A stretch of DNA of 64,000 nucleotides from Candidatus Latescibacterota bacterium (lineage in GTDB: Bacteria; Latescibacterota; UBA2968; UBA8231), in the NCBI GenBank assembly GCA_965219385.1, contig CBDCNM010000002.1:3544305-3608304 (forward strand). The letters run 5' to 3'. Positions within the stretch are counted from its first letter, which is position 1. Every line of letters starts with the position of its first letter. Both the position numbers and the translations under genes were made by a program. Below, in pieces: positions 7,942-37,904 of this stretch. The notes beneath the pieces are model-generated. The model was not told where the DNA came from. It worked only from the letters and a program-made list of their open reading frames with translations, and made no database searches.

Positions 7942-9180
7942 TGTAGTGGACCCCAAAAACTGGACCACTGGTTAAGGTGGAATTATCTTATCAGTGGAGG
8001 TAACCATGCGTCGAAAAATCATACGCCTGAATTCAAAGCCCAGGTGGCGCTGGAAGCGCTCAAAGGGCTGAAAACGCTCAATGAACTGGCCAGCGACTAT
8101 GGGGTCCATCCCAACCAGATCAGCCAGTGGAAGCGCCAACTGCAGAGCGAATCCCAGCATCTATTTACCCGCCGTCCTACGCCGGACCAACGAGCCGAAG
8201 AAGAATTGAAAGCTCATCTGTATCAGCAAATCGGCCCGCTCAAGGTGGAGCTGGACTGGGTGAAAAAAAAGCTGCCCTCTTCGATTGAGATGAAACGGGC
8301 CCTTATTGATGTGCCGCATCCCCCACTCAGCATCCGACGCCAGTGTGCCTTGTTGGGTTTACCGCGTTCGTCGTTTTACTATAGCCCGGCTCAGGCTAGC
8401 GCTGAGGAGTTGGTCCTGATGCGGCGGATCGACGAGCAATATACGCGTACTCCTTTCTATGGCAGTCGAAAGATGGTCACCTATCTGGGGCAGCAAGGCT
8501 GCTCAGTCAATCGCAAACGGGTCCAGCGTCTCATGCGCCCGATGGGGTTAGAAGCGATCGCGCCTGGAAAGCGGACCAGCACGCCTCATCCAGGGCACAA
8601 AGTCTACCCCTATCTGCTGCGCGGCTTGACCATTGATCGCAGTGATTACGTAGGGTGCACCGACATCACTTATATCCGTCTATACCAAGGCTTTATGTAT
8701 CTAGTCGCCGTCATGGACTGGTGTAGCCGCTACGTGTTGACCTGGCAGCTATCCAATACACTGGACGTGAACTTCTGCCTCGATGCCTTGGAGACGGCAC
8801 TGAGGGGGGGGCCACCCGACATCTTTAACAGCGACCAGGGCGCTCAGTTTACCCGTCATGCTTTTACTGATCGTTTGCAACAGGCTCACATCGCCATCAG
8901 TATGGATGGACGCGGCCGGATGCTGGACAATATCTTTATCGAGCGGCTTTGGCGTAGTCTCAAATACGAAGATATCTACCTGAAGGACTACGCCACCGTC
9001 CCCCAACTCTACGAGGGATTAACGGCGTATTTCCATTTCTACAACGAGGAGCGTCCTCATCCGTCCTTGGATAATCAGGTCCCAATTGAGGTGTATCATG
9101 CCGGCCGAATCCATCTCATTTAACCCCAGCTTTTCACCTTAAAATACCCCAGAGTGGTCCAAACAATGGGGTCCACCTCC
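7942..9180 (+). mobile_element. IS3-family element, copy a; orfA/orfB fused, 1-bp deletion just after the start codon
   Basis: IRs tgtagtggacccc...ggacca / tggtcc...ggggtccacctcc; 3-bp TSD ccg; DITY, NSDQGAQF, NIFIERLWRSLKYE; A5 vs A6 run after ATG compared with copy b. Confidence 0.92.
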
Positions 9181-9206: not shown

Positions 9207-9615
9207 CGAATTCCCTAAGGCAACACAATTGTACATGCGTATTATTGAACAGTTCCCCGAAACTCAGGAAGCCTTTCAGGCACAGCAGGTTCTGATCTAC
9301 TTGAGCGATATGGCAGCCGACTCGCTCTACACTGAGGGCATGGCTCTGTACGACAGAGGGGAATACAAGCAGGCAATTGAGGTCTTACGGCAAATCGTCG
9401 AGCGCTATCTCGGCACACCCAGTGAGGCAGCAGCCCGGTGCAATATCGGCGTTTCCTACCAGCAGATGGGCGAATGGCGCAAAGCTGCCAAAGTTTACGA
9501 GGAAGCCATAACGGCGCTGAAGGGGCGAGAAGAGGAGTGGCAAGCTCTGGAGTTTGCTCGGGCAAATCGGAGGTGGATTACGCGCACATACTTCGGCGAG
9601 GAGGTGATGGAGTGA
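9207..9615 (+). pseudogene. TPR-repeat C-terminal fragment left of the IS insertion's downstream side
   Basis: ADSLYTEGMALYDRGEYKQAIEVL..IVERY, ARCNIGVSYQQMGEWRKAAKVYEE; no start outside the IS. Confidence 0.75.
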
Positions 9616-10367
9616 CGCATTTCTGGAACAGGTTTGTCTTGCTGGTGATTTTCCCATCCAGTTGCCTCCAGATACCACCTGACCTCCTTTACAAGATTCG
9701 CATTGAGCCGCATGAAGCTTTTTTGCAGGAAACAACCTACTACTTTGATCTGGAGGACAGTACTACTGTGTTCCAGAAAAAGGGTTTCCGTCTGAAGCTG
9801 CACTATATGAGCGATCAGGAACTGAACCGAGAATACGCCCGCTCCACCTTCCGCGATCCCAATCTCAATCCCTTCACTTACGGCACGGACCGCGATCTGG
9901 ACAAGGGGTATTCCCCTCCACGCTTCACGGTCTTCCAAATGACTGTGGTCAACCAGAATAACTCTAAGGCCATGGTGGACCCGGCCAAAATGGCTTTACA
10001 TACGGACCGAAGTGAGGTATTCGAGTACTGGGACGTGCTCAAGCACGATGCAACGAACAGCTTCGAGCAATACTACCTTAAGCGACGCGGTAAGGGCGGC
10101 AACGAGAATTACTACTTTCAGGAGCGCATGGGTCTGGTGCGGCAGGACCTGTACAGGCGTCATGTCTTCGTCTTCAAGGGGGAGGAGTACAGTGGCAAGA
10201 TAGTCTTCGCTCCGCTGCACAAGGATGTGCGCGAGGTGAAGATAAAGGTGAAGGACATTGTGCTGCAAGTGGATGCGTTCGACCGGCCTAAGGAGACTGT
10301 GGACGCCGAGTTCCGTTTCCAGGTAGAGCAAAAGGTAGTATCCATGGACCTAGAACGGTCTCAATGA
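9612..10367 (+). CDS. Lipoprotein of unknown function, paralog of 18592-19329
   Basis: GTG start overlapping the upstream stop; lipobox-like VIFPSSC; shared NPFT[YF]G, RFTVF, DP.K..L, LH.DV motifs. Confidence 0.8.
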   Translation: MTHFWNRFVLLVIFPSSCLQIPPDLLYKIRIEPHEAFLQETTYYFDLEDSTTVFQKKGFRLKLHYMSDQELNREYARSTFRDPNLNPFTYGTDRDLDKGYSPPRFTVFQMTVVNQNNSKAMVDPAKMALHTDRSEVFEYWDVLKHDATNSFEQYYLKRRGKGGNENYYFQERMGLVRQDLYRRHVFVFKGEEYSGKIVFAPLHKDVREVKIKVKDIVLQVDAFDRPKETVDAEFRFQVEQKVVSMDLERSQ

Positions 10368-10827: not shown

Positions 10828-11505
10828 ATGCACCTCGTTTTTGCTCTGCTGCTCTGCAGTCTTGGAACCGTCGCTCAGGCCCAAAACCCCGGTCCTATCG
10901 TCTTTAGCGAACTGATGTGGATGGGCAGTTCTGCATCGAGCTCGGATGAATGGATCGAGTTGTACAACCGGAGCGATGCACAAGTAGACTTGGTCAACTG
11001 GACTATTGTCCGGCTGACCAAGGATGGAGAGGAAGTAGTCATGCTGCAAATACAGGAGGGGGAAATCCCTGCGCACGCCACCTTCCTCATTTCCAACTAT
11101 TCATCCGACGACTCTCGTTCCCGCTTGGCTGTACAACCCCAATTGGTTGACCCTGCGGTTTCCCTGCCCAATACCAAACTGCAGCTGCGGCTCTACAATG
11201 GAGACCCAGAAAAGGGCGCCAAGCTGGTAGATACAGCCGACGACGGCAGTGGCGCCCCTTTGGCCGGCGACAACAAGCTGAAGCGCGCCATGGTGCGGAT
11301 TGCTGTTGATCAAGATGGTGGCCTTTCGACCAGTTGGTCCACAGCCCAGGAAGCCATTGGCTGGGATGAAGAAGCGGTCGAACGCGGAACCCCGGGCTCA
11401 GTGCCGGATCATCTTCAGACCCATCGCACAATGGAGCACTCTGCCACCACGCAGATCCGGCCCATGGCCTGGGCAATAATTAAAAGCAACATGGCAAACA
11501 GGTAA
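10828..11505 (+). CDS. Secreted lamin-tail-domain protein with C-terminal W[GA]xIK motif
   Basis: Signal peptide (AQA), IVFSELMWMG..DEWIELYN....VDL..W, GTPG; ends TQIRPMAWAIIKSNMANR. Confidence 0.85.
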   Translation: MHLVFALLLCSLGTVAQAQNPGPIVFSELMWMGSSASSSDEWIELYNRSDAQVDLVNWTIVRLTKDGEEVVMLQIQEGEIPAHATFLISNYSSDDSRSRLAVQPQLVDPAVSLPNTKLQLRLYNGDPEKGAKLVDTADDGSGAPLAGDNKLKRAMVRIAVDQDGGLSTSWSTAQEAIGWDEEAVERGTPGSVPDHLQTHRTMEHSATTQIRPMAWAIIKSNMANR

Positions 11506-11512
11506 GTCCAAA

Positions 11513-11549
11513 GAAACGCCCCGGAGGAATGCATCCTCCGGGGCGTTTC
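11513..11549. terminator. Likely bidirectional intrinsic terminator
   Basis: 16-bp stem gaaacgccccggagga / tcctccggggcgtttc between convergent genes. Confidence 0.85.
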
Positions 11550-11569
11550 ATAACGATGAAGAGCAAAGC

Positions 11570-12910
11570 TTATTTAGAAAACTGGCTCACATTGGCAATT
11601 CCACCAGGCTGGGTCAGGGCGTAAACAATCAAATTAACCCCGAATTGCAGGCCTCGTTCCCTCTCGCTGTCCGCACAAGTATCACCCCAGTACCAACTGA
11701 GATTCAGATCGCTGAATACAACCACGATCCGCCCGCGCAATTCCAGCATCTCCAGATCAAAAACATTGCCACCAGGAGCACCGCCCATAGGGGGGCCATC
11801 TGGAAAATTCCAGAAACTCTCATAAAGAGCATGATTTTTGGGGATTTTTTGCCACTTGGATCCATCACCGCCCAATACGAGAGGGTCTTTCATCAAGCCT
11901 TTGAACTGACGATCGAAAGGGGTGCCTTCAACCCCAGGACTCCTGGTGTTCAGCTTGTCGTCGCAGTTTTCACTCTGGCGGATATCATCGGCATAGAGAA
12001 ACCCACCTGTCTTCAGATAATCGCCCAGATTCAGCTTTTCCGTATTGCTGATTTGGAAAATCGCATCGTGGCCTGTCATGTAGAGAAAAGGGGCGTCCAG
12101 GATCTTGGGATCGCTAAATTCGAGGGTTGTCCCCTCGATTCGCGCCTTGATCTTGGTGTGATCCCGCATGTAGCGCATCAATTCCTCCGCAGCCGTGGGG
12201 AAACGATCCCTGTTTTTATCAGCTACATCGTAATCGACGATGGTCATATTGAAATAACCCCTAATATTCTTTTTATCTTCGGGATCCTGGATAACAACCG
12301 CCTGGTACCGACCAATGTCCAGATCATCGACATCCATCAGTGCCTGTCCCAGACTGATGGCTTCTTGTACAGGAGTCGCTGTTTCGGTCAGTTCTACCAT
12401 CTCCACCTGATCAAACGACAACTCTTCGGCCTTTGCACCGCTGAAGGCACCCAGTGTCTGGGTACCGGGCAACACCGCGCCCAGCAGGTCACTACCCACC
12501 GCGCTCACATCGGCAATGGCAGTGAGGTCCTGGGGCATATCAGGGGGCGCCAGGGAAGCCAGCATTTCCATCTGCACCTCGGAAATCTCCGGTCGCTTGG
12601 CCAGGTCGAAGTTTTTCTGTAGAATCGGCGGAGGAGCTTCAAAGCGGAGGAGGCGCTCTTTTTCTTCTTCAAATGCCGCCCCAAAGAAATAATAATAACC
12701 GAATACACTGCCATGCCCCACCAGAGAGACTATAAAAGCGGTGCTCATCCCAATCCGCTGACCTTGGGTGGCTTTGTACAGGGCGAAGAGCAGCAGGAGA
12801 ATGCCGGACAACCCAAAGGCTATGGCGACCCACTTGGAGAGGATAAAACCCAGGTGAATGAGGACAGCCAGTCCAAAGACGCCGTATAGTATTTTTTTAT
12901 GCTCGTCCAC
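11570..12910 (-). CDS. Membrane-anchored DUF4159-like protein with Pro/acidic linker
   Basis: Three N-terminal hydrophobic segments; PFLYMTGH, L..YLKTGGFLYADD, H.LYESFW, GVNLIVYALT. Confidence 0.75.
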   Translation of the reverse strand: MDEHKKILYGVFGLAVLIHLGFILSKWVAIAFGLSGILLLLFALYKATQGQRIGMSTAFIVSLVGHGSVFGYYYFFGAAFEEEKERLLRFEAPPPILQKNFDLAKRPEISEVQMEMLASLAPPDMPQDLTAIADVSAVGSDLLGAVLPGTQTLGAFSGAKAEELSFDQVEMVELTETATPVQEAISLGQALMDVDDLDIGRYQAVVIQDPEDKKNIRGYFNMTIVDYDVADKNRDRFPTAAEELMRYMRDHTKIKARIEGTTLEFSDPKILDAPFLYMTGHDAIFQISNTEKLNLGDYLKTGGFLYADDIRQSENCDDKLNTRSPGVEGTPFDRQFKGLMKDPLVLGGDGSKWQKIPKNHALYESFWNFPDGPPMGGAPGGNVFDLEMLELRGRIVVVFSDLNLSWYWGDTCADSERERGLQFGVNLIVYALTQPGGIANVSQFSK

Positions 12911-12951
12911 GACAATCCTTACCTCAGTTTAAGAGGAGAAAAAGGGATTGG

Positions 12952-13356
12952 CTATTCTCCCCTCTGCGGTTCCGTAGCTATTATCTGATCGACAACGCCG
13001 GCCTGGCGGGCAATATCCATGATCTTCACAATCTGCCCGTGAGTTGCGCGTTCATCCCCCTGAATAATGATCATCGTGGTGTTGTCCAGTATCTCCCTCT
13101 TGGCCTGGATTTCATCCTTCAGGGTGGTCCAGGTCACGGTCTTGTGGTTCAGCTTCATATTGCCATCCTGATCCACCACGATGAAGAGATTTTCCTTCTC
13201 CGGGGCCTGGGCTTCTTCGGCTTCAGGGAGTTTGATATCCAAGCCCGGCGTAATAGCAAACACAGCCGTCACCATGAAGAAAATCAGCAGCTGGAAGACT
13301 ACGTCAATCATGGGGGTCAGATCAAGTTTTTCATCTTTTTTTTCCACTGCAGCCAT
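12952..13356 (-). CDS. exbD: ExbD/TolR-family protein
   Basis: LTPMIDVVFQLLIFFMVT with conserved Asp; IQGDERATHG.IVKIMD. Confidence 0.93.
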   Translation of the reverse strand: MAAVEKKDEKLDLTPMIDVVFQLLIFFMVTAVFAITPGLDIKLPEAEEAQAPEKENLFIVVDQDGNMKLNHKTVTWTTLKDEIQAKREILDNTTMIIIQGDERATHGQIVKIMDIARQAGVVDQIIATEPQRGE

Positions 13357-13395
13357 TATCTATAGGACCTCCGATTCCGATAGTGAGAACGACAA

Positions 13396-14049
13396 TCAGG
13401 CTGTCTGGCCGCCCTGCCAGCGGCGCAGCAAAGCATCCACAAAGCCGTGCCCGTAGGCCTCGAACTGAATGGACTTGCCAGAAGCTCGAGTGCTGAAATA
13501 GCTGTAAATAGCCAGCGAAGGCACGGCTATTACCAGCCCAGTAACAGTGGTGATCAGGGCTTCGGAGATACCGGCGGCAACGATGGTCGGCTCACCAAGC
13601 CCTTTCTCGGCAATACCCTCAAAGGCGTTGATCATACCATTCACCGTGCCCAGCAGTCCTAGCAATACCACGGAAGATGACACAAAACTGATAACCGACA
13701 GATAGCGCTCAAGGTAGCCCATGGCAGCGCGTTCCACAGTCCCGTTCATCTCCTCGCGCATCTCCTCCATGGTGCGCTGCTCGCGCGAAAGGTGCTCGAA
13801 ACGCTCGATTCCCTCGCCATACACCTCGCCCTCAAGCCTGCCCAGTTCGGAGCAATACTCCCTCAGCTGATCGAAAGAAGTTCCCGAGTCAATACGAGAG
13901 CTTATATCGTTGGTCACCTCTGCCAGGTCGTTCTCGGAACGCATCCGCGCATAGGTGATTACCCGCTCGAGAAAGAAGGCCAGAGCCATGATCGACCAGA
14001 GAGCCAGAGGATACATGAAAGGTCCGCCATCGCGAAAAAAATCTAACAT
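13396..14049 (-). CDS. exbB: MotA/TolQ/ExbB proton-channel protein
   Basis: GGPFMYPL, LLGLLGTVNGMINAF, AAGISEALITTVTGLVIAVP. Confidence 0.92.
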   Translation of the reverse strand: MLDFFRDGGPFMYPLALWSIMALAFFLERVITYARMRSENDLAEVTNDISSRIDSGTSFDQLREYCSELGRLEGEVYGEGIERFEHLSREQRTMEEMREEMNGTVERAAMGYLERYLSVISFVSSSVVLLGLLGTVNGMINAFEGIAEKGLGEPTIVAAGISEALITTVTGLVIAVPSLAIYSYFSTRASGKSIQFEAYGHGFVDALLRRWQGGQTA

Positions 14050-14110
14050 CTCTCTATACTCCTTTTTGGGGGTTGACCGCTATGAGTTCTCTCAGCAATT
14101 CACCTGCAAG

Positions 14111-17100
14111 CTAGAGGACGCGTGCTTCCTCCAGGGTTTCCAGTTGCTGCTTGGCAAAATCTACCTGTATCTGATACTGGGAGTTGTCGCTGTACTTTTC
14201 GACCACTTCCGTGAAGAACGCCCCCGCCTTGCGATAATCTTCTTCCGCCATGTACGACGCCCCGATATTGAGCGCGGCATTCACGGCCTGATCGCTGTCC
14301 GGGTACTTCTCCTGCACTTCCTTAAAAATCTTCCTGGCCTCGTCGTAATCCTCGCTATCGAAGAGTTGCTCGCCTTGCGCGTAGAGGTTGTAGGCATCAA
14401 TCTCCGCCAGATGCCCTAATAATACCCTCGCTTTTCTACGCAGCGCCCTGTCCCGCTGGGTCTTCAGTTTGTCCTCGGGAAAGAGGGCCAGGAACTTCTG
14501 GTAGTTCGTCGTGGCCTGCTCGTACTCTTTGAGGCCGTAGTAGTAATCGCCCAGGGTAAACTGGCTGCGCGCACCATAACGCCCATCCGGATACCTGGTC
14601 ACGATCTCTTCGAAAATCGGAATGCCCTCCTCGGTCCGATCCAGGTTGATCAGACACCAGGCCTTGTTGTAAAGCGCATCATCGGCGTATTGCGACCTGG
14701 GATAGCGATCCAGAAGCCGCTGGTAGAGGGCCATGGCCTCCTGGTTATTCTGATCTTTTTCCTCAACCGTTTTTCCTCGTAGGTTAAAAATTGCATCTCC
14801 AGCCCGAAAAAGGGACTCACCGGCATACTTCGACTTCGGGTAGTTACTGGACAGTTTCACAAATACCCCACTGGCATCCCGCCATTTGCCAAGTCTATAC
14901 CTGGCCCAGGCATCGTAGTAATAGGCGTGGACAGCGCGTTCATCTTCGGGATACTTGGTGTAGTATTCCTTGAAGGTGGCGGACATGGATGGCAGTAGAT
15001 TGAGGTCTTCCGCGGAGAGTTTCTGGTAGCAAATCCCAATCTGGAACAAAGCATTTTTGGCCCAGCCGATCTGTGGATAGTTTTCCATGATGCTGCGGTA
15101 AACCTCGATAGCCTTGACGTAATCGTCGGACTTGTAGTAGCTGTTGCCCTGGATGAACATGGCATTGGAGATACTCTCTATATCCATTGCCAGGTCAATC
15201 AACTCCTGGGTGGTCTCGATGCTCTTCTGGAATTGGTTCAGCCTGAAATACGCACTCGCCAGGCGGATCAGGACCCGCTGTTTTTCTTCCTCGGTTTCTA
15301 TCCCGGCCAGCAACTCCTCGTAGATCTTGATAGCCTCTTCAGGATCCCGTTTTTCGGCCATGGAAATCAACTGCAAACGGGCCGAGCGGGCCAAGCTCTC
15401 ATCCCCCTTCTCGATAACATCGTTCAGCAGATTTTTAGCCCGAGCATCTTTGCCCTGGGCGGAGTACGAAAGGGCCATGGAAAACTCCACTTTCCGCTGC
15501 ATTGTCTCGGGCAAATCGGTATCGAGCAACCACTGGTAATCCGCCAAAGCTCTGTCGTAACGGCCTACGTAGTGATAGGCCAGGCCGCGGCCGTAGTGGA
15601 CATCTCTGATTACATCGCTTGCGGGATACTCCTCGATGACCCGGGTGTATCTACTCAAGGCATCAACGTAATTTTTGTTGTTCAGATCGAGCTGGGCCAT
15701 CTGGAAATGAGCCCGTGCTTCGAGTCCCGGATCACCGGTGACGCCCTCCAACAATTTCTCCAGAAGCTTTTTCCCCTCGGAGGAACGCCCTTCTTTGATA
15801 TGGATATTAGCCGCTTCGATCAAAGCCGCGATGTAGGTCTCCCGGGCATTCCGTCCGACCTTTGAAAAAGCTTCTACAGCCTCGTCCAGGCGTCCCTCAC
15901 CCCGATAAAGTCTGCCCAAGCCATAGTAAGCATCCGCTGCTTCGGGGGTTTGATTATAGGATTCAGCAATTTTTTCATAGGCTTTTAGAGCCTCAGGTAT
16001 GCGCTGCTGCTCCTGGTTCAACCAGGCGATCCGCAACAGACACCTGGGGGCCTGCTCAGAGCGTGGGAAAGCATCTACCACCCGGCTATAGTATTTGAGG
16101 GCCTCATCGGGCTCTGCCAACTTTTCGGACGACCAGGCAGCGGTATAGAGTGCCGCTGCCCGCAACTCGGTGTCGCTATCGGGGTAGTCCTCCAGAACCT
16201 TCAGGTATTCCTCGCGGGCAGTGGCAAAATCACCGCCGTAGTAGCGCGCTTCACCCTTGTAATACTGAGCGTTGGGAGGATAGGAGGTGTCGCTGTAGAG
16301 TTCGATGACCTGGTTGTAGGTGTTGTAGGCATTGTCGTAGCGCTCCCACTCCAGGTAGTTGTCACCCATGCGCATCTGAACCTTGGCTTTATAGTCGCGA
16401 GCTTCCGCGGTCTCCTGGGCGGCGATGAGTTCCTTGTAGGCTTTCTCGTACTGGTTTGTCTTGCGGTAGATTTCCGCCACGCGCAAGGATGAGGTTTCAA
16501 AAAGCTGAAGATAGCTCTCAAAATCCAGGTTTTTACCTTCTCGGAACGAACCGCGCAGCAACTCGAACATGCGGTCGTAGAGATCGCGCACCTCTCTGTA
16601 GGTGGCTATGGCCTCCTCGTCGCGTCCCAACTTGTCGTAGGCATTGGCTTTGAGGTACACGGCCTGCCCGATCACGGGACTGTTGGGGTAGTTGTCCAGG
16701 ACGAGTTGGGCTTCGCCGACCGCGCGCTGGTAATCTCCTTTCTCATAGTACGAACTGGCTATGCGAAACTGGGAGTCCGGAGCGTATTTGTCTTCGGGAT
16801 AACCTTCCAGCATCGCCTGGAGCGTCGCAATCGTTTGATCGTACTGCTTGAGGTTGAATTCGCTCCATCCACTGTAGAAAAAGGCCTTTCCAGCCAAATA
16901 GGAACCGGGGTACAGCTCGACGTATTTCTTGTATTCCTTGACCGCTTCGCCGTACTCTTTCTGAAAAAAGCGGGTCTCGGCCACTTCGAACTGCACCTTC
17001 GAGCGGAAATCCTCCGGGACGCCTTCCACATCCATGACCTGGCGATAGGCCTCCACTGCTTCCTCGTGCCGATCGCTTTCCTTATAACATTCACCTAGCT

Positions 17101-17365
17101 TATACCACGCAGCGGCCACTATGGGTAGTTCAATTTCCGCTATCTCAAAATACCACCGCACACTGTCCGTGCGCACCGCCCAACTCCTGCCCCTGTCTTT
17201 AAACGAGACGACCTTTTTGAATTCCAGAATCGCGCCCTCGTATTCCTCTGCCGCATAGAGCTTTTTACCAGCTTCGAAATTGGTCCTGAGGTTCTGGGGC
17301 ACGGGCAGAAAAAGACTGCTTCCCAAACCCAGTCCCAGCGCAATTAGCCCAATCCAGACCGCCAT
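14111..17365 (-). CDS. 1084-aa TPR-repeat protein (BamD/CpoB-type repeats) with N-terminal anchor
   Basis: Many repeats of the form A.Y..G..YY..G.Y..A...Y..V...YP.S. Confidence 0.92.
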   Translation of the reverse strand: MAVWIGLIALGLGLGSSLFLPVPQNLRTNFEAGKKLYAAEEYEGAILEFKKVVSFKDRGRSWAVRTDSVRWYFEIAEIELPIVAAAWYKLGECYKESDRHEEAVEAYRQVMDVEGVPEDFRSKVQFEVAETRFFQKEYGEAVKEYKKYVELYPGSYLAGKAFFYSGWSEFNLKQYDQTIATLQAMLEGYPEDKYAPDSQFRIASSYYEKGDYQRAVGEAQLVLDNYPNSPVIGQAVYLKANAYDKLGRDEEAIATYREVRDLYDRMFELLRGSFREGKNLDFESYLQLFETSSLRVAEIYRKTNQYEKAYKELIAAQETAEARDYKAKVQMRMGDNYLEWERYDNAYNTYNQVIELYSDTSYPPNAQYYKGEARYYGGDFATAREEYLKVLEDYPDSDTELRAAALYTAAWSSEKLAEPDEALKYYSRVVDAFPRSEQAPRCLLRIAWLNQEQQRIPEALKAYEKIAESYNQTPEAADAYYGLGRLYRGEGRLDEAVEAFSKVGRNARETYIAALIEAANIHIKEGRSSEGKKLLEKLLEGVTGDPGLEARAHFQMAQLDLNNKNYVDALSRYTRVIEEYPASDVIRDVHYGRGLAYHYVGRYDRALADYQWLLDTDLPETMQRKVEFSMALSYSAQGKDARAKNLLNDVIEKGDESLARSARLQLISMAEKRDPEEAIKIYEELLAGIETEEEKQRVLIRLASAYFRLNQFQKSIETTQELIDLAMDIESISNAMFIQGNSYYKSDDYVKAIEVYRSIMENYPQIGWAKNALFQIGICYQKLSAEDLNLLPSMSATFKEYYTKYPEDERAVHAYYYDAWARYRLGKWRDASGVFVKLSSNYPKSKYAGESLFRAGDAIFNLRGKTVEEKDQNNQEAMALYQRLLDRYPRSQYADDALYNKAWCLINLDRTEEGIPIFEEIVTRYPDGRYGARSQFTLGDYYYGLKEYEQATTNYQKFLALFPEDKLKTQRDRALRRKARVLLGHLAEIDAYNLYAQGEQLFDSEDYDEARKIFKEVQEKYPDSDQAVNAALNIGASYMAEEDYRKAGAFFTEVVEKYSDNSQYQIQVDFAKQQLETLEEARVL

Positions 17366-17458
17366 TTACACATCTCCTTGTCTCTTAGCTCTGTTGGTTC
17401 CGAAAAACCCTATCTCGGTTCGCGCCACTCGACTTCTGACCACACTACCCAGGCTTCC

Positions 17459-18532
17459 TTAAAACTCGTATCCAAAGGAGAAGCGATGGGCCCCGTTGGT
17501 CTCGACCAGATCCAGAGGCAGGTGATAGCTGTAGTCGAACAGCAGGTTGGTGTTCCACCGATAGCCCAACCCCGCATTCAAAGCCCCCTGAGCCTCCTCC
17601 TCGAAAGGCCGACTGCCCCCCACCCGCAACATCAACCCTTCCCGCAACCGCGTCTCTCCCCCGAGCACCAGCTTGCTCATGCGGCTCGACCGCTCCTCCA
17701 GGACATACTTGTCCACCCCCAACGCCTCGTCAAACTCCGTGCCCGCCTCCACCAACGCCGACGCGGCCATCACATCCCGCACCACCCACTGCACCGACAG
17801 CAGCGACGAGGGATTGACCTGATAGGACACCCCTACGTGCAAATCCGCCGGCAACTTGCCCGCGTCCACATCCTCCTCGGCCACCAGCGCATCCCCCGGG
17901 TCGAGCACCCCATTGTCATTGGTATCCCGGCGCACCCCGCGCATCCCCTTGCCCTTGGATATCCCCGGCTCATTCACATTCTTGAGCAACACCCCCAACT
18001 GGGCCCCGGCCACCGGGGTGTGCCACAACACCCCCACGTCCACCCCCACGCCCCCGGCCCCCTGCCCCGAGAGCGGATCGGCCGGGTCAAAATCGCCCAC
18101 GCTCCAGAATAGATACTTGGCGTTGAGCCCCAGGCTCAACTTTTGGCTCAGGTTCACCCCCACCGACAAAAACGCCCCGTTCTCGCTCATCAGGTCCGAG
18201 CCGATCCGCTCGAAGCCCAGTCCCAACCCCAGTTTGGCCCCCAACGGCTGCACATAGGAGACGACGTGTTGCCCCAGGTTGTTGCCGTCGTCCATGCCGC
18301 TAAAAAACAGCGACACATTGGTATAGGCCAGCTGTTTGCGCGGGAGCCGCCCCACCCCGGCCGGATTTTCGAACACGGCATCCGGGTTGTCGGCCACGGC
18401 CACAAAGCTGTTGCCCAGGGCCTGGGAGCGGGCCCCGGCCCCCACATTCTGGATGTTTACTACTGCCTCGGCTGAAAGTGCAAAGCAGAGCATCGTTCCC
18501 AAAATGATCGCCAAATATTGCTTAGTCTTCAT
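17459..18532 (-). CDS. PorV/PorQ/FadL-like outer-membrane beta-barrel
   Basis: Signal peptide; GAGARSQALGNSFVAVADNPDAVFENPAG N-terminal motif; terminal HRFSFGYEF beta-signal. Confidence 0.8.
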   Translation of the reverse strand: MKTKQYLAIILGTMLCFALSAEAVVNIQNVGAGARSQALGNSFVAVADNPDAVFENPAGVGRLPRKQLAYTNVSLFFSGMDDGNNLGQHVVSYVQPLGAKLGLGLGFERIGSDLMSENGAFLSVGVNLSQKLSLGLNAKYLFWSVGDFDPADPLSGQGAGGVGVDVGVLWHTPVAGAQLGVLLKNVNEPGISKGKGMRGVRRDTNDNGVLDPGDALVAEEDVDAGKLPADLHVGVSYQVNPSSLLSVQWVVRDVMAASALVEAGTEFDEALGVDKYVLEERSSRMSKLVLGGETRLREGLMLRVGGSRPFEEEAQGALNAGLGYRWNTNLLFDYSYHLPLDLVETNGAHRFSFGYEF

Positions 18533-18591
18533 CAGGTATCTCCTCCTTCATTTAGTTGGGAGCACAGCCGATCCTGAGGGATCCTCTTCTT

Positions 18592-19329
18592 TCAGTTAGT
18601 GAGCTCTCTTCTACCATCTGTATACTCTTTGCCAATATCCCTGACAAAACTGTAGTTTAGATCCAGGGTCTCAATAGGTTCGTTGCGAAAATCAAACCGC
18701 GTAACAATATCGTGCACTTCCACCTTTATTTGTTTAACGTCGGGATGGAGCACTTCGAAAATGACAAAACCATCTGATTCCTGGCCGCTAAATATCTCTT
18801 CGTTCTCGAACATGGTACGGCGCAACAGATCTCGCCGCTCCTGGTAACGATCATATTCATTCCCTCTGTAACCAATTGCATAGGCGCGGTAGTAGGTATC
18901 TAGCTGATCGAATCCAAGACTCCAGTACTCGCGCTCATTTGAAGCCTTCAGCACGATTTTGGAGGGATCTATCCGGACCTTTGGGTAGGCATAGTTTTTG
19001 ACGCTGAGTCGGAAAACCGTAAAGCGGCGTTTTTGCTGAGTGTCTCCCCAAAATTTAGTATCGCCAAAGGTAAATGGATTGGTAGATTTAGGGCCTTTAT
19101 TAGAGTGGCTGGGGAACTGGCGGTTCAGTTCATCATCGGTCATAGGTTTCAACCTTACTTCGAAACGATCCTGGCTGAATGTCACAGTACCATCGTCGGC
19201 GATGCTCATGGAAGTTCCCTGCGACCCATCTGGCTTCAGATCGCCTGCATAGTAATAGTATCCACAACCATGTAAAGAAGATATGGCCAGGAGTATTAAA
19301 AATGGTGCGTATTGAAATTTAAAAGCCAT
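18592..19329 (-). CDS. Lipoprotein of unknown function, paralog of 9612-10367
   Basis: Lipobox LHGC; NPFTFG, RFTVF, DPSKIVL, LHPDV. Confidence 0.82.
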   Translation of the reverse strand: MAFKFQYAPFLILLAISSLHGCGYYYYAGDLKPDGSQGTSMSIADDGTVTFSQDRFEVRLKPMTDDELNRQFPSHSNKGPKSTNPFTFGDTKFWGDTQQKRRFTVFRLSVKNYAYPKVRIDPSKIVLKASNEREYWSLGFDQLDTYYRAYAIGYRGNEYDRYQERRDLLRRTMFENEEIFSGQESDGFVIFEVLHPDVKQIKVEVHDIVTRFDFRNEPIETLDLNYSFVRDIGKEYTDGRRELTN

Positions 19330-19394
19330 TAGCTAATCCCCCTTCTACAATTGCAAGACACTTACAATACAATCAATCTTCAAGAACAATATAA

Positions 19395-20321
19395 TCAATC
19401 TTCGAGAAAAGCCTTGATTCGCCCCCAACTTTTCAATTCTACAAACGCGGGGCGGAAAATCTCCTCCAGGGGCATCAATTGCAAATCGGCAAACCGCTCG
19501 GAAAACTTAAAGCTGTTATGGCCTCCTGAGAGCGACCATTTTGCATCAAAGAACTCGGAGAAACCATCAAAGTCGCTAAACTCCACGTTGAAGCCCAGTA
19601 TTTCACCTTCCTGGAGGGTATGTTTAGTACTCAGAATGGCTGCGTCCATATTCACTTGATCAAAAGGCTCGAGCATCAATTCGTAGGTCGTTACACTGCC
19701 AGTCTCCGTCAATCCATGGGAATAGGCCGCTTTCGTAAAAGGGCCATCGGGTAAAGCATACCAGGCCGCAGCGGAAAAATTGACGAAGAAATCACCGTCC
19801 GGAGGAGGACCGGCTATGACAAAATGACTGGCCGCTGATCCATTTAAGGCCAGTTGCTCCTCAGAGGGCAAATCAACGAAATTCGCATATTGGCCACCTG
19901 AGTGATCTGCGTCGAGATAAACTTCCATATCATCGTCCTGAAAAATCCGGCCAGCTGCTGTTCCGGCAGGACGATCAACCTGGTGCATATCGTCATTCAC
20001 CTGGGCAGCAAAAAAGAGTTTATTCTCCGTCTTGGTCCAGCCCACCATCAAACGAACAGAGAAATCAACTGGGTCGAGCTCGTCGTCTTCCGGGCGGACT
20101 AGATCAAAAAAGTCTTCCGTTGTAATAATATAAGATTGTTCCACCACCTTCCAGTCCCCCAGGTCGCCATCAATGACGGGTACCAGCCGATCCGGGAACT
20201 GAAAAGCCTTGTAGAATGTTTCAGAGGGTAAATGGGCCCGCACAGAAGCGCAAAAGACCCAGAAACTGGCCAAAATTACAATCGGGAAATACCTATAATT
20301 CTTGGGCTGTATGATAACCAA
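19395..20321 (-). CDS. Secreted CBM9/DOMON-like protein with C-terminal SWGRIK motif
   Basis: Signal peptide (VRA), PVIDGDLGDW, LFFAAQVNDD, DDMEVYLDAD, GFNVEFSDFD; ends AFVELKSWGRIKAFLED. Confidence 0.75.
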   Translation of the reverse strand: MVIIQPKNYRYFPIVILASFWVFCASVRAHLPSETFYKAFQFPDRLVPVIDGDLGDWKVVEQSYIITTEDFFDLVRPEDDELDPVDFSVRLMVGWTKTENKLFFAAQVNDDMHQVDRPAGTAAGRIFQDDDMEVYLDADHSGGQYANFVDLPSEEQLALNGSAASHFVIAGPPPDGDFFVNFSAAAWYALPDGPFTKAAYSHGLTETGSVTTYELMLEPFDQVNMDAAILSTKHTLQEGEILGFNVEFSDFDGFSEFFDAKWSLSGGHNSFKFSERFADLQLMPLEEIFRPAFVELKSWGRIKAFLED

Positions 20322-20401
20322 TGGTTGAAGCTATGTCAAGCTGATAGTATTCTCTGGCGCTCTGTATTTATGCATTTAGTACAATACTGGGGACACTTTT
20401 T

Positions 20402-20475
20402 ATAAGTGATTGATTTTCAATAAGTTATGCAATATGGTGCTCAAATCCATAACTTGTTGTTTCTACGTCACTTAT
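20402..20475. promoter_or_regulatory. Pair of inverted 28-bp sites in an AT-rich intergenic region (candidate operator)
   Basis: ataagtga-N8-caataagttatg (20402-20429) and cataacttgttg-N8-tcacttat (20448-20475). Confidence 0.5.
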
Positions 20476-20685
20476 GAATTTGAGATCGCTCAGATTGGCC
20501 GTTTTGCTCAAAAAGTTGTCCGAACCATTGATAAAATTACTATATAAAAAACCAGAATGGCAAGAAAAAACTTGAAAATTTGCCAGCAAAAAAATTATAG
20601 AGTTAAGTAACCGAAGGTAACAAGAACAACAGATAGGCCGCCAACAGAAAAATAATAAGACATTGAAAAAATTAGACTTATGGCA

Positions 20686-21633
20686 CTAATTAGCCTTCTC
20701 CATTTCCGCGTCCCTCTGGTTATCCCCCTCCTGATTATGCTTTTCGGCCCCATTGGACTCACTGTCTTCTGCATCCCGGCGAAAACGGATATGTTTGACG
20801 TCCCGCAAACCAATGGCGAAGGATCCGACCTTAGAATCCCCTGTAAAAACCTCATTCAGGCGAGCATAGTAGTTCCTGTCGGTCTCGCCAGGTAAGCGCA
20901 CGGTACTGATGCCCACTGTCCCCTGTAGGGTTTTTCCCTTCCGCAATACAATGGTTACAGGACGCTGTTCTTCAGCCCCCCCAGAGTCGATGAAATCAAT
21001 CTTCTCAATCTTGCTCATAGGCAGTGAACGCCGCATGCGCCCCTGAGTGAAATCGAACCGGGTCTTGCCAAGAAAGCGCAGCTGGGACACTTCAAACCGC
21101 TTGCCTTTCATGGTGATGAGGGTTGCTTTGAGAGGGGCATCTGGAATGGGCAAAGAGCCGGCCGGATGACGAATGATTACTTCGCGAACCTCATTGAGGC
21201 GCATGATGAAGGGCCCTAACTCGCTCACTCCAGAGAAAAGTATTTCCGCCCGCCCGCTGCCGAATGAATCTTGAGCGCGGGGTGCTGAGTTGCCCCCTGT
21301 CAGAATAGACCCCGATTCCGTCACACCATTCCTCAGATACACACTGATCGCCTGTTGTTCATCGCCGCGGTTTCCTTCAAAGACGATGCGATCGATCCGG
21401 GCAAATGGTTTGATCCGCCGCACATCCCCCACGTAGTATTCCAGTTCAACCCGATCCTGATAGGTGAACTTGGACACTTCGTGTTTGTTGCCGAGGCGGT
21501 CTACGACAGTCGCTTTGATCTTTGACTGTATTGCCCGACCCTCTCCCCCCCACATCACAGCCAGGACCAGCAGCCTCACCAGCCATTTGCTACAAAGATG
21601 TATCTTGCAGGTTGATACCACGCTAAAAGCCAT
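20686..21633 (-). CDS. Secreted hypothetical protein with an internally duplicated domain
   Basis: Signal-like N-terminus; two copies of KAT.....G...EVS...RR..P...I..I.F...EQ......LR.G....G. Confidence 0.8.
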   Translation of the reverse strand: MAFSVVSTCKIHLCSKWLVRLLVLAVMWGGEGRAIQSKIKATVVDRLGNKHEVSKFTYQDRVELEYYVGDVRRIKPFARIDRIVFEGNRGDEQQAISVYLRNGVTESGSILTGGNSAPRAQDSFGSGRAEILFSGVSELGPFIMRLNEVREVIIRHPAGSLPIPDAPLKATLITMKGKRFEVSQLRFLGKTRFDFTQGRMRRSLPMSKIEKIDFIDSGGAEEQRPVTIVLRKGKTLQGTVGISTVRLPGETDRNYYARLNEVFTGDSKVGSFAIGLRDVKHIRFRRDAEDSESNGAEKHNQEGDNQRDAEMEKAN

Positions 21634-21680
21634 GCCTTCTGCCCTCCTAGCAATTCATCAGGGGGGGTGAACTGAATTCT

Positions 21681-22373
21681 CTAGGGTCCTAGATCCTGAT
21701 CTCCAGGCTCCTCCTCACCCACATCGGGTTCCAGCTCTATGAAAATCGGAGTAACCCTACCCATGCTGACCTCCACGTCCCTGATGTGGTCAATCTCGGC
21801 GCTCAACATTGCTATCCGCACCTTGTAAATACCAGGACGCACTATAAAATGGCGCACCTGAGTCGATGTCATACCCTCCCCTAGCACCGAACGCATCTGG
21901 TAATCGAAGATCAGGAAGCGCACCTGTGTGGGGATTCCACTCCTGGTGACATTGAGCATAAACCGCCCGACCTGGATCGGCACCCACTTCTCCTCGCCGA
22001 GCACGACTTCCACGTCGGGAATTTCTATACTGTCCCTCGACAGGTCGGTATTGACAACTATGGTGTATATCCCCGGATCCAGATAGGTGTGCAGCCTGTT
22101 TTCCGTTATGCTGCGCTCAAAAGCGCTCGGAGACGTGGAAGCGGGCCGGGGCGTGTCGGCAAAAACCTGCTCTTCGGTCTCTTGATCGATGACGAACCAA
22201 TTCAGTTGATTGATGCCGCCGGCCTCTAAGATGAGGTGTCCCTTGCCCTCCGGAATCGGTGGCGGCAAATTATGGCCCCCTTCCGTAGCAGCACATCCAG
22301 CCAGCAAGAAGGATAAAGTTGTTGCCAGGCCCAGTATCTTGATACATGGCCCTCTGTTAAAAATGCGTGCCAC
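21681..22373 (-). CDS. Lipoprotein with two beta-sandwich-like segments
   Basis: Lipobox LLAGC; two PGIY.[IV] motifs. Confidence 0.8.
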   Translation of the reverse strand: MARIFNRGPCIKILGLATTLSFLLAGCAATEGGHNLPPPIPEGKGHLILEAGGINQLNWFVIDQETEEQVFADTPRPASTSPSAFERSITENRLHTYLDPGIYTIVVNTDLSRDSIEIPDVEVVLGEEKWVPIQVGRFMLNVTRSGIPTQVRFLIFDYQMRSVLGEGMTSTQVRHFIVRPGIYKVRIAMLSAEIDHIRDVEVSMGRVTPIFIELEPDVGEEEPGDQDLGP

Positions 22374-22444
22374 AGGTCCCTCCTTTTTTATGCCTGCATC
22401 CTGCTTTATTTATGCCTGGGGTCCAGAATGGTTCCCCATCTACT

Positions 22445-22927
22445 TCAAAATGAACGCCAGCTTGGAGACTTGTCGTCCCGGTCATCTCTGTTGGTAAGAT
22501 TCACAGGAAGCACTGCTGGGGATTCCACCTCATCCAGATCGAAGCCCGAGATCCCAGTTGCGCACCTTGGTTGGGGTGGAGGCGTAGACGATGGTTCCCT
22601 CTCTTGCAACCCTGGCGTTGCTTCCGGAAGGTAGATCAAATACCAGCGAGTAGGTCTCCATCTCCGAAATAGGTGCTGAATCGAGTTGAAGTTCCTTGGT
22701 TTCGTGATAGCCACTGGCTACGACACTGGCCTTGTAGATCCCGCTTCTTAATTCCTTGAAGGAGAAGGTCCCAGTATCTACAGACGATTGAACTTGAATT
22801 CGGGATCATTGGCATCCAGACGCAATCTACGCCCATCCCTACCTCTAATCTTTACGGTGACTTCGTTTGTGCCACATCCCGTAATCAGCATCCCGTAAAT
22901 TACTACAAAACCCAAACTTCTGAGCAT
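22445..22927 (-). pseudogene. Degenerate lipoprotein with TolB/PD40-like remnants
   Basis: RBS ggaggag, ATG 22927, lipobox LITGC, stop after ~49 aa; other frames give GTIVYAS..NWDL and NLTNRDDRDDKSPSW. Confidence 0.6.
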
Positions 22928-22959
22928 GTTCTCCTCCTGAAAAACACACGGTTTGCCGG

Positions 22960-23685
22960 CTATACTAGGGGGCGAATCGGGTCATCCTGTTGCAGCCCAC
23001 TAAGCAGGCGGATACGCCTCCCAACCTCGTCTATCAAGTCGTCCTGATCGCCGAACCGGTCAGAGTAGATTGGTTCGCCGACGCGAAAATATATCTGGGA
23101 ACGAGGTTCCCCCAAGCTTTCGTACTCCAGGCCCACGGGAATCAAGGGTATCCTCAGATCAAACTCTCGTTCTACCCATAGCAGATGATCGACTATCTCC
23201 CTTTGCAGGGGCCCCATAGTGTCCTGATAACGCATGCCTTCGGGGTGGGAAACAATACACTCGCCCTGTCTGTAAAGCCAGGCAAGATAATTCAGGGTCT
23301 GCTGGTTTTCCTCCCGGGCCCAGCGAATTTGGGCCCTTCTGGCCTCCCGATCTTTCACCCTTCTAATATCCTTGGGACGGACGATTTTGACCCCTCCTAT
23401 CCACTCCAGGATGCCGTAGAGACCTACTTTCATCACATAGTTGGCGTGGCGCCTGGTAAACCGGTACAGTACCACAGCTTCGACCAGGATATCGCGGTAG
23501 GCCCGGTGCTTGGGCAATAATAGGACCGGGCCTTGGGGCGGTAAGTATTCCGCACCTTCCACCATAAGGCGATGGTAATGGAGCGCTCCTGCCGCCAGTG
23601 AGCGAATACAACCGGTAATCCAGTCTGTGCGGCGCAATGTAAAGTCTTGAGAGGGGCCAGATTCAGACATATTCCGCAAAAACAA
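22960..23685 (-). CDS. Lysophospholipid acyltransferase (PlsC-like)
   Basis: HRAYRD (HX4D), HPEGMR, PLIPVGLEY, GEPI; start may be ATG 23670. Confidence 0.85.
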   Translation of the reverse strand: MFLRNMSESGPSQDFTLRRTDWITGCIRSLAAGALHYHRLMVEGAEYLPPQGPVLLLPKHRAYRDILVEAVVLYRFTRRHANYVMKVGLYGILEWIGGVKIVRPKDIRRVKDREARRAQIRWAREENQQTLNYLAWLYRQGECIVSHPEGMRYQDTMGPLQREIVDHLLWVEREFDLRIPLIPVGLEYESLGEPRSQIYFRVGEPIYSDRFGDQDDLIDEVGRRIRLLSGLQQDDPIRPLV

Positions 23686-23740
23686 AAAGGGACTTTATAG
23701 TGAAAGCCCCAGGATTTCAAATCATTGTCCCATTGGCAGC

Positions 23741-24286
23741 CTAGTTGAAAAGAATCTTGATCTTGCCCCAGGTATTCTCTTCTATTTCGGTGGGAAGGTG
23801 TTGGAGATCAAGAGCGGAAATGATCTGCACGAGTTCCTGGATAGTCTCGACAGGTGTGCGCTCACCCCGGGCATCTACAAAAAGCATGAAGTCATTAGGT
23901 GCCTTTAGCTCCTTTTTCACTTCGTCCAGAACCCTGAAATCACGGAAGGCCTTTTCGCCGTCCTCAAGCTTGTAGGATAGTCCATTGCGAGTGCGAAAAT
24001 CCTCGGGATCAACGGCTGTCTTCTCCCCTCCTGGCTCGGAGAGCACAATACCGGTTACCTGCAGCCAATCTTCGTAGTCCTGAACCAGCTCCTGCAACTC
24101 GCGCGCTTGGGCCTGGTGCTCTGGATCGTCGGCAAAGAAGAGATAAAACAGTCTATGAGGATGCGTTTTTTTCCGATTTTCGGGATCTGAGATTCCACCC
24201 TTCTCCTCACCCGATACGACCTGGGCAATCAGGATAAATCCAAGCCCTATCAAACCACTTTTGACAAATCGCTTCATCGTGCTCAT
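23741..24286 (-). CDS. Secreted protein, possibly a degenerate thioredoxin-like fold, with C-terminal TWGKIK motif
   Basis: Signal-like N-terminus; ends PTEIEENTWGKIKILFN. Confidence 0.7.
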   Translation of the reverse strand: MSTMKRFVKSGLIGLGFILIAQVVSGEEKGGISDPENRKKTHPHRLFYLFFADDPEHQAQARELQELVQDYEDWLQVTGIVLSEPGGEKTAVDPEDFRTRNGLSYKLEDGEKAFRDFRVLDEVKKELKAPNDFMLFVDARGERTPVETIQELVQIISALDLQHLPTEIEENTWGKIKILFN

Positions 24287-24308: not shown

Positions 24309-25379
24309 TCACTCCGCCCGGATACTGTACCCTTTGTGGATCTGCTCCTGACCCTCCAGGATGGTAACCAGAGAAAGGTGATCCCCCAAGACCTGTTTTA
24401 CCTGAACCACCCCAATCCTGCGGGGCAATGCTCGACCTAAAAAGATCCCCGTCTCGGTATCCGTGAGTTCACGACCATTATCCCATACTCCGAATTTGTA
24501 TCCATTCTGCACCCCTTCCACCACTCCTATATTAATATAAGCGCGAGCACCGTCAATATCTATTATTTTTGGTTTGGAGACCGTCAACTCCGACGGCGGA
24601 CTGATCAGTTCGGCCAACCCCGTGGCCAACTTCTGCAGACATGAACCCGCAGCCTGCCCCAGAAGGGTTTGGTGAAACTCCTCCGAGCCCCACTTCACCT
24701 CCCCCAGCAGCAGATATTCCTTTTCAAATTTCACATAGGCTGCCGGATTGGTTACGCCGTATTTTTTTTCGTCGGTCTCCCCCTCGCCTTTTACCTCGTT
24801 TGTCGGACGCCCGTCAATTACTTTGAATGGCTTGAGGGTGATGTTGGCAATCCCTTGATAGCTGCGATAGCCCCCGATGGGCACAGTAGCTCGAAAGCGC
24901 TTCATGCTCAAATCTTCAATCTCGCCCAAAATCACGTAATCCGCATTCAATTCGCGTCCCCACTGCAACGCTTTTTCGGGAGCGATACGTCCTTTGAATT
25001 CTTTGCCTTGCAAACGCGCCAGAACTGAATCTATTGGGATTATGCGAAAAAGCGAGTTGCTTCGCAAGGTATCGCTCAAGCTCCGGGGCAACTCGACCTG
25101 AATCTCCCAGGGGCCCTTGTACTTCGAAAGATCCTTGAAAGGCACAAATAGCAGTGCCTGGGCCAGAGCATCGGAGCTGTCCCCTGGCGTTTGACTGTGC
25201 AAAATCTCCTCAGCTCCTGCGAGCTTCTTTTGCTCCCCTGCTCTGGCTGCCCTGTCTCCTGCTACCGAGGTCGTATCCTGGAAAATCTCTTCCCCTCCCA
25301 TGAGGATGGGGGTTTCTCTCAGCTGGGCACAGCCCGTCCAAGACAACGTGAGCAGGATCAATAATCCCCAGCTTTGCAT
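24309..25379 (-). CDS. Lipoprotein with CsgG/HfaB-like domain and FlgT-C-like terminal domain
   Basis: Lipobox WTGC; ALQWGRELNADYVILGEI; AYINIG...GV..G..F.V...G.EL.D.ETG..LG. Confidence 0.7.
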   Translation of the reverse strand: MQSWGLLILLTLSWTGCAQLRETPILMGGEEIFQDTTSVAGDRAARAGEQKKLAGAEEILHSQTPGDSSDALAQALLFVPFKDLSKYKGPWEIQVELPRSLSDTLRSNSLFRIIPIDSVLARLQGKEFKGRIAPEKALQWGRELNADYVILGEIEDLSMKRFRATVPIGGYRSYQGIANITLKPFKVIDGRPTNEVKGEGETDEKKYGVTNPAAYVKFEKEYLLLGEVKWGSEEFHQTLLGQAAGSCLQKLATGLAELISPPSELTVSKPKIIDIDGARAYINIGVVEGVQNGYKFGVWDNGRELTDTETGIFLGRALPRRIGVVQVKQVLGDHLSLVTILEGQEQIHKGYSIRAE

Positions 25380-37740: not shown

Positions 37741-37904
37741 ATAATCTCTCATTGCGAAGAAACTCCTTTTTTGTTGATATATTTAGTGCAAATTTGAATT
37801 TTTTCCTGCTGAACTATTGCGATTATCCAATAAACAGACTATACTTATCAATTCAGATATACATAATGTTTATATAAACACATTTTTCTGGAGAAAGATA
37901 TATC

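Follow-up and report, generated by a model that had tools for sequence, protein, structure and literature searches.

Three putatively secreted proteins encoded in a 64,000-nucleotide stretch of a Candidatus Latescibacterota genome (C2:3544305-3608304, referred to here as the window; the genome has two contigs, 5.81 Mb and approximately 60% G+C) end in a common peptide. Our analysis revealed that this tail is a portable tag on exported proteins, uncatalogued in the libraries searched. It stands at the very C-terminus of 61 open reading frames (ORFs) of the genome, which fall into 16 groups by their bodies, and it is conserved across Latescibacterota classes. An earlier note, made from the letters of the window, had reported the three proteins and proposed that their shared ending is a tag on exported proteins. 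The coordinates and tail letters were exactly as it claimed, and the idea of a portable tag was borne out genome-wide.

Enrichment and conservation of the tail

The core motif W[GA].IK was counted in every six-frame ORF of 80 amino acids or more in the genome (21,331 ORFs). It occurs 42 times, and 36 of these occurrences end no more than eight residues from the stop, with a peak at four to five residues after the lysine, compared with approximately 1.8 expected near a stop (4.3% of positions qualify). A hidden Markov model (HMM) of the tail located the 61 ORFs, one of which (145 amino acids) is probably spurious; only tagged proteins 1, 2 and 3 (Table 1) lie in the window. Each of these three has an N-terminal hydrophobic signal-like segment, and across the genome a crude signal-peptide rule selected 41 of 52 tagged ORF-genes versus 856 of 3,945 others (odds ratio 13, p = 5e-18). 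The C-terminal enrichment and the co-occurrence with signal peptides for which the earlier note had proposed tests are therefore both present in this genome.

The aligned tails have the consensus T-A-V-E-x-x-[ST]-W-G-x-[IVL]-K-x-x-F-x-stop (approximately 16 residues), in which tryptophan and lysine are invariant and glycine is nearly so; the columns upstream of T-A-V-E are unconserved. The invariant lysine is followed by four residues in 12 and by five in 31 of the 61 ORFs (43 together), with a maximum of 13. The third residue after this lysine is phenylalanine in 37 of 58 tails, and the last residue is basic in 40 of 61 (arginine 25, lysine 15). No hydrophobic span or transmembrane helix is present in the tail, which, as had been described, is far shorter than the C-terminal domain (CTD) of the type IX secretion system (T9SS). 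The codons of the conserved threonine, glycine, isoleucine and lysine vary synonymously between body groups, and therefore the constraint acts on the protein, not on the DNA. Two other origins of the shared ending were considered and rejected. A DNA repeat overlapping the gene ends is ruled out by the synonymous variation. The end of a larger, unrecognised domain is ruled out by the unconserved upstream columns and by the known carrier domains, which end 15-28 residues before the stop and are directly followed by the tail.

In 23 tagged proteins scanned against Pfam-A (2025) and NCBIfam 20.0 (2026), no model covered the tail; this negative is strong rather than absolute, as HMMER filters can lose short models. 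The motif strings appeared in no relevant paper of the library searched, which also returned nothing relevant on Latescibacteria sorting, Latescibacteria T9SS or DUF4159 (a family encoded beside the tagged genes, see below). These searches agree with the earlier note, whose author knew of no characterised name for the tail but allowed that one might exist. The tail can be placed among C-terminal protein tags in general, but it lacks the features that define the named families with which it was compared.

Carriers of the tail

Grouping of the tagged ORFs by blastp after removal of their last 25 amino acids gave the 16 body groups, the largest of which are CBM9-like (31 ORFs), FGE-sulfatase/PD40 (7) and LRR (6), with one to three ORFs in each of the others. 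In 20 representatives, Pfam identified FGE-sulfatase, PD40, LRR, Cache, VWA, HmuY and CBM9 domains. Among the window proteins, tagged protein 1 matches LTD (3.4e-11) and its divergent tail scores 23.8 bits (E = 1.3e-5), while tagged protein 2 belongs to the main carrier family of 31 members, its own CBM9-like match being weak (19.2 bits, cut-off 23.4). No family match was obtained for tagged protein 3 in the Pfam or NCBIfam scan. The three had been described as unrelated, and their domains do differ; however, in two other genomes (L108 and L113) their orthologues adjoin, in the order tagged 181-aa gene, acyltransferase, tagged CBM9-like gene and tagged LTD gene, so the window genes represent a conserved trio, not three independent draws.

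Eighty related CBM9-like loci were obtained from Candidatus Latescibacterota, together with a few bins labelled Gemmatimonadota, Bryobacterales, Chloroflexota or Opitutaceae; the names of several related bins suggest a sponge origin. The tail is present at 61 of the 80 loci. The remaining 19 comprise four cut by contig ends, three with the tail plus a 15-residue extension, three with the tryptophan replaced, and nine without a tail, some of which stop just before the tail start. At the other end of the CBM9-like carriers (window 19395-20321 and L002-L007), a histidine directly follows the predicted signal-peptide cleavage site in six of nine aligned sequences, and a D-A-D-H-S stretch is invariant among the four closest CBM9-like paralogues. 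This sequence pattern suggests a putative metal-binding site at the mature N-terminus.

The search was extended to a public protein library of 1.84 billion representatives, which gives no taxonomy for the matches. At E <= 0.001, 66 proteins were obtained, and the best-matching stretch lies no more than eight residues from the C-terminus in 56 of them, as read by eye from the table. Thirteen of the 66, picked as exceptions or for their multiple stretches, were examined in full. Tandem motif copies, two to five in number, were found in P0007, P0013, P0004 and P0028; in P0005 a copy follows each of the three repeated domains; and P0003, P0018 and P0051 have a copy just after the signal peptide plus another at or near the C-terminus (in P0051, nine residues beyond). 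The matches in P0001 and P0052 seem to be unrelated repeats. Strict restriction of the motif to the C-terminus thus breaks down outside this genome, and because tandem and post-signal-peptide copies occur, the motif behaves as a docking module. Six of these library proteins (P0003, P0005, P0007, P0013, P0018 and P0051) are lipoproteins whose body family was not encountered in this genome.

Conformation of the tail

The earlier note had suggested an amphipathic helix. In the ten residues starting at the serine or threonine before the tryptophan, the helical hydrophobic moment was not above that of shuffled sequences (mean z 0.36; z > 1 in 8 of 39 tails), and the strand periodicity gave a mean z of 0.79 (z > 1 in 19 of 39), so that tail periodicity is more strand-like than helix-like. 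AlphaFold2 modelling of tagged protein 2 from a 9-row alignment (mean predicted local distance difference test score, pLDDT, 59.5) yielded a body folded as a beta-sandwich, then an unstructured linker and a helix spanning residues 298-306; in this model the tail appears detached from the body. The pLDDT is 30-36 in the helix and below 50 over residues 287-308, and the amphipathic helix gains no clear support. Complex prediction with residues 24-357 of the PorV-like barrel encoded in the window (16-row alignment) and a 32-residue tail (39-row alignment), run without controls, returned a score of 0.00, that is 'no answer', and counts neither way.

Distribution in Latescibacterota

With a 26-position profile, all 18 genomes of the same family contain the tail (3-85 matches each), compared with none of 12 genomes from two sister families. 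A survey of 168 Latescibacterota genomes in fourteen families (f1-f14) with the tail profile at E <= 0.001 found the tail in 92. It is present in f1 (75/75), f5 (3/3), f6 (3/3), f7 (1/1), f8 (1/1), f9 (2/2), f11 (1/1) and f12 (5/6), and the count is zero in f2 (0/31), f3 (0/3), f4 (0/22), f10 (0/13), f13 (0/1) and f14 (0/5); in f2, f3, f4 and f14 together this amounts to 0 of 61 genomes. Relaxed searches (E <= 1, with matches read by eye) added five distinct tail-ending proteins in the f13 genome (G061) and, in f10, one in G041 and two in G048. They also gave one tail-ending protein in each of two f14 genomes (G064 and G065) and one doubtful 79-aa ORF in an f3 genome (G024), and no tail-ending protein in f4 (G083), f2 (G098), f14 G063 or f3 G020. 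The canonical form T-A-V-E-x-x-S-W-G-Q-I-K-A-L-F-[KR]-stop was also seen in four distant families (five genomes), both on orthologous bodies and on different ones.

Gene neighbourhood of the tagged proteins

The minus strand of the window from 25379 down to 11570 forms one gene run, toward which the tagged LTD gene converges from the plus strand (Table 1). In this run the gene after that of tagged protein 3 encodes the acyltransferase, and the two proteins without family come next, before tagged protein 2. The 245-aa lipoprotein encoded in the run matched only unnamed lipoprotein clusters in the ESM Atlas, with a weak DUF4352-like lead at 0.79. This genome contains four paralogous modules of a tetratricopeptide repeat (TPR) protein, a DUF4159 protein, a lipoprotein, ExbB and ExbD, two of which also include a lipoprotein of the 356-aa type. 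The order tagged CBM9-like gene, lipoprotein, PorV-like barrel was found in G000, G003:C458, G010:C143, G013:C1 and L126, and also at G004:C205, where no barrel match is listed; in G036 the tagged gene is directly followed by the lipoprotein in 4 of 4 copies. In L108 and L113, where the orthologues of the tagged trio adjoin, the block from lipoprotein to DUF4159 is missing, so this block behaves as a cassette.

Table 1. Positions of the tagged proteins and of neighbouring genes in the window.
Feature	Position	Strand	Remarks
Paralogue of 245-aa lipoprotein	9438..10367	+	309 aa; 1.3e-28 to the 245-aa protein
Tagged protein 1, LTD (lamin-tail)	10828..11505	+	225 aa; signal peptide; divergent tail encoded at ~11446-11502
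Long membrane-anchored DUF4159 protein	11570..12910	-	446 aa; 1.3e-28
ExbB (13396-14049) and ExbD (12952-13356), proton-channel motor pair	12952..14049	-	PF01618, 6.8e-25; PF02472, 1.8e-28
TPR protein, BamD/CpoB-like repeats	14111..17365	-	1084 aa
PorV/PorQ-family outer-membrane barrel	17459..18532	-	NF033709, 75 bits, below cut-off 90
245-aa lipoprotein	18592..19329	-	no Pfam family; directly downstream of tagged protein 2
Tagged protein 2, CBM9-like	19395..20321	-	308 aa; tail encoded at ~19398-19448
Three genes between tagged proteins 2 and 3	20686..23685	-	241-aa PlsC-type acyltransferase; 315 aa and 230 aa, without family
Tagged protein 3	23741..24286	-	181 aa; signal peptide; tail encoded at ~23744-23791, 27.1 bits
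356-aa lipoprotein	24309..25379	-	weak LpoB/FlgT-like matches; first gene of the run

Several other features were observed around tagged genes. A second PorV-like barrel gene, 96% identical to that of the window, lies on the other contig (G000:C1:944944-946011) without the rest of the cluster. Eight proteins of 930-1094 amino acids, without a Pfam match and with Tyr-Ala-Gly-rich ends, adjoin CBM9-like tagged genes (two of them are L191, G000:C2:2822865-2825651, and L192, 516913-519708), and may be large outer-membrane proteins paired with the CBM9-like tagged proteins. An A24 prepilin-peptidase-like membrane protein (L193, G000:C2:4198757-4199830) and an AhpC/TSA redoxin (L194, G000:C2:4113556-4114134) recur beside expanded CBM9-like tagged arrays. 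The first 28 kb of the window have a G+C content of 50-54%, compared with ~60% genome-wide; an IS3-type transposase is encoded at 8044-9123, and transposase-like ORFs recur, such as the same-ended 447-aa ORFs at 29720-31063 and 58311-59654. It is possible that the tagged cluster lies within mobile or recently gained DNA. A 581-aa ORF at 37851-39593, whose homologues in five other genomes all contain several in-frame stops, may represent a shadow frame or else a mobile-element gene in decay.

Co-distribution of candidate reader genes

The distribution of the neighbouring genes was compared with that of the tail. Homologues of the 245-aa lipoprotein (E <= 1e-8) were found in 104 of the 168 genomes: f1 (75/75), f5 (3/3), f6 (3/3), f7 (1/1), f8 (1/1), f9 (2/2), f10 (11/13), f11 (1/1), f12 (5/6) and f13 (1/1). 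They were not found in f2 (0/31), f3 (0/3), f4 (0/22) or f14 (0/5). When the relaxed searches are counted, the lipoprotein-bearing families are exactly those with two or more tails per genome. The f10 homologue is a longer form of approximately 405 amino acids. On this pattern of sequence matches, no candidate reader component correlates better with the tail than the 245-aa lipoprotein family.

The DUF4159 protein and the 356-aa lipoprotein were checked in ten genomes, one per family (f6-f10 and f13; f2, f3, f4 and f14). The long DUF4159 protein is present in all six tail-bearing families checked (1e-133 in f9, 7e-131 in f6, and present in f13), with 46 matches in f7 (G037), 16 in f8 (G038) and 13 in f10, and the four families f2, f3, f4 and f14 gave only short domain matches (1e-5 to 1e-8). 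The numbers in G037 and G038 represent an unusual expansion of the long DUF4159 protein. The 356-aa lipoprotein is present in five of the six tail-bearing families (f6, f7, f8, f9 and f13); it was not found in f10 (the low-tail genome G041) or in any of f2, f3, f4 and f14 (0/4). The 315-aa protein was found only in f9, where it adjoins the lipoprotein, and in f6. Two control proteins of the window were found in 5 of 5 genomes, although in-frame stops interrupt the matches to the first. PorV-like homologues were found in 160 of the 168 genomes, with scores below 1e-25 only in f1, f5, f6, f9 and f12. The earlier note had proposed phylogenetic profiling against the PorV-like, TPR, ExbBD and DUF4159 genes; the long DUF4159 protein follows the tail in the ten genomes, and the PorV-like barrel does so only partly.

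Relation to T9SS and other tag systems

Matches to TIGR04183 (T9SS type A CTD) above the cut-off were found in all 168 genomes. Like the tail, this CTD occupies the extreme C-terminus of Sec-exported proteins from many unrelated families, in dozens per genome and in the same organisms, and a PorV/PorQ-family barrel is encoded near tagged genes. A home-made CTD profile identified 81 CTD-ending ORFs in this genome, none of which is among the 61 tagged ORFs, so the two endings never stand on one protein here. No C-terminal CTD match (TIGR04183 / PF18962) was obtained in the 23 tagged proteins scanned; L010 gave a single internal, sub-threshold CTD match (residues 240-288, 15.4 bits, cut-off 23). 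Within three genes of tagged genes, CTD genes make up 23 of 300 neighbours versus 1.7% of all genes, a number that no random placement attained in 1,000 trials (mean 6.1), in a test that ignores the clustering of tagged genes in arrays; 18 of the 61 tagged genes have a CTD-gene neighbour. The two endings differ in build and spread. The CTD folds into a domain and has a model of 72 positions, compared with approximately 16 residues and no model match for the tail; the CTD is in 168 of 168 genomes and the tail in 92 (E <= 0.001); and the tail, unlike the CTD, also occurs as tandem repeats or close to the N-terminus. A likeness between the tail and the 81 CTD endings, a terminal basic residue after a hydrophobic run, was also considered and set aside as loose and too weak to use.

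The tail was also compared with the tripartite sorting signals. The cited passages describe LPXTG/sortase, PEP-CTERM/exosortase, GlyGly-CTERM/rhombosortase and MYXO-CTERM/myxosortase signals as a motif, a transmembrane helix and a basic cluster (PMC1569441, PMC3237569, PMC11980579, bioRxiv 10.1101/2023.06.07.544157). As far as these passages go, such signals resemble the tail in being short signatures on many unrelated exported proteins in patchy lineages, with a few tagged genes beside candidate machinery and most dispersed. The tail differs from what they describe in usually having only four or five residues after the lysine (43 of 61) and no hydrophobic span. NCBIfam assigned no sortase, exosortase or rhombosortase name to 11 window proteins, and no search was aimed at such enzymes.

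SLH, LysM and choline-binding repeats are folded, non-covalent anchoring modules of 20-60 residues with known ligands. They are modular, portable between families and single or tandem, as is the tag, which is unlike them in being a single short peptide. The beta-signal of outer-membrane barrels is a C-terminal peptide read by the BAM complex, which includes the TPR protein BamD. The tail likewise is short, C-terminal and strand-like in periodicity, and a BamD/CpoB-like TPR protein is encoded in the same operon. However, the tail carriers are proteins with soluble domains (LTD, FGE-sulfatase, PD40, LRR, Cache, VWA, HmuY) and not barrels, and the terminal aromatic residue of the beta-signal is not a feature of the tail, in which phenylalanine is last in 1 of 61.

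Interpretation of the tail

The reading that we favour, with confidence about evenly divided for and against, is that the tail is a docking peptide that would tether Sec-exported proteins to a cell-envelope receptor. After export, the tail would be bound by a dedicated reader, most likely the co-inherited envelope set of the 245-aa lipoprotein family, the long DUF4159 protein, the TPR protein and ExbB/ExbD, which in some copies would also include the PorV/PorQ-like barrel. Binding would put the tagged proteins at or on the outer membrane, and extra motif copies would add avidity. The tag is patchy (92/168) while T9SS CTDs are universal among the genomes surveyed, which argues that it is read by something specific to the tail-bearing lineages. 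The earlier suggestion that the tag is read by the adjacent machinery thus gains indirect support from the co-distribution of the lipoprotein and DUF4159 proteins with the tail, but this pattern reflects only about two losses.

Several observations weigh against docking to this set. The two losses that may be counted as independent are those in f2-f4, which belong to the same class as f1, and in f14. The CBM9-like carrier family itself was not found in 5 of 5 tail-poor genomes, so the whole gene set may have been lost together. Of three f14 genomes, two encode a single tail-ending protein without a lipoprotein homologue at E <= 1e-8, and one f3 genome has the doubtful 79-aa tail ORF. The PorV-like scores separate the tail-bearing families only partly, f7, f8 and f11 overlapping with tail-poor families. 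The majority of the 61 tagged genes are distant from all four paralogous modules, and for the conformation of the tail a strand-like periodicity stands beside an AlphaFold2 helix of low pLDDT. Envelope docking is a predicted role.

The main competing explanation, which we consider unlikely, is that the tail is a minimal T9SS signal that replaces the CTD of approximately 80 residues and is read by PorV-type shuttles and the T9SS sortase. It would account for the coexistence of both endings in these genomes without overlap in this one (81 CTD-ending and 61 tail-ending ORFs), the excess of CTD genes near tagged genes (23/300, reached by none of 1,000 placements), the PorV/PorQ-family barrel in the operon and the basic last residue usual in both. 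However, none of the 61 genomes of f2, f3, f4 and f14 lacks T9SS, yet the tag was not found in them at E <= 0.001, so T9SS alone does not explain the tag. The tail also matches no CTD model and is too short for the CTD fold, and the array clustering ignored by the neighbour test bears on the excess itself. Because the motif also occurs in tandem and after signal peptides, positions that do not suit a terminal secretion signal, a docking or anchoring module fits better. The tail might alternatively anchor proteins by itself, as a short peptide with tryptophan and lysine that would insert into the membrane interface or attach to a wall polymer without any protein reader. We find this distinctly unlikely, even with both residues invariant, the modelled helix 298-306 detached from the body and tandem copies that would add avidity: the helical moment is no higher than in shuffles (mean z 0.36; 8/39 with z > 1), the helix has a pLDDT of only 30-36, the conserved polar T-A-V-E and near-invariant glycine point to specific recognition, and whole families with the same envelope type lack the tail.

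The arrangement in P0005, where the tail follows each repeated domain as would suit cleavage between units, and the paralogues that stop exactly before the tail could be taken to indicate a cleavage site or degradation tag for a periplasmic protease. This is very improbable, since no protease gene is generally linked to tagged genes (the A24-type peptidase stands only beside one expanded paralogue array) and a degradation tag kept on 61 proteins across classes would be costly. Chance or shared ancestry of paralogues, with no functional module, is refuted: one expanded family does supply 31 of the 61 carriers, but the tail also ends proteins of fifteen further body groups, whose Pfam domains differ, 36 C-terminal motifs were observed against approximately 1.8 expected, and the conserved residues are encoded by synonymously varying codons.

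Significance

Short C-terminal tags have repeatedly led to sorting machines, including sortase, exosortase, rhombosortase and T9SS. The tag described here is built differently from the known ones, as it lacks both a membrane helix and a folded domain and may stand in several copies. The relatives searched, all uncultured bacteria, have between 3 and 85 tagged proteins per genome, and a curated tail profile would let annotators flag the carriers as envelope or surface proteins. The co-distribution yields a short list of candidate readers that is directly testable. A more far-reaching interpretation, which we advance tentatively and rate as doubtful, is that the tag and the co-inherited gene set would constitute an undescribed localisation pathway of Latescibacterota and allied uncultured phyla, in which a proton-driven envelope machine would capture a 16-residue peptide, so that dozens of unrelated proteins would come to sit on the outer membrane by a route parallel to T9SS and independent of it.

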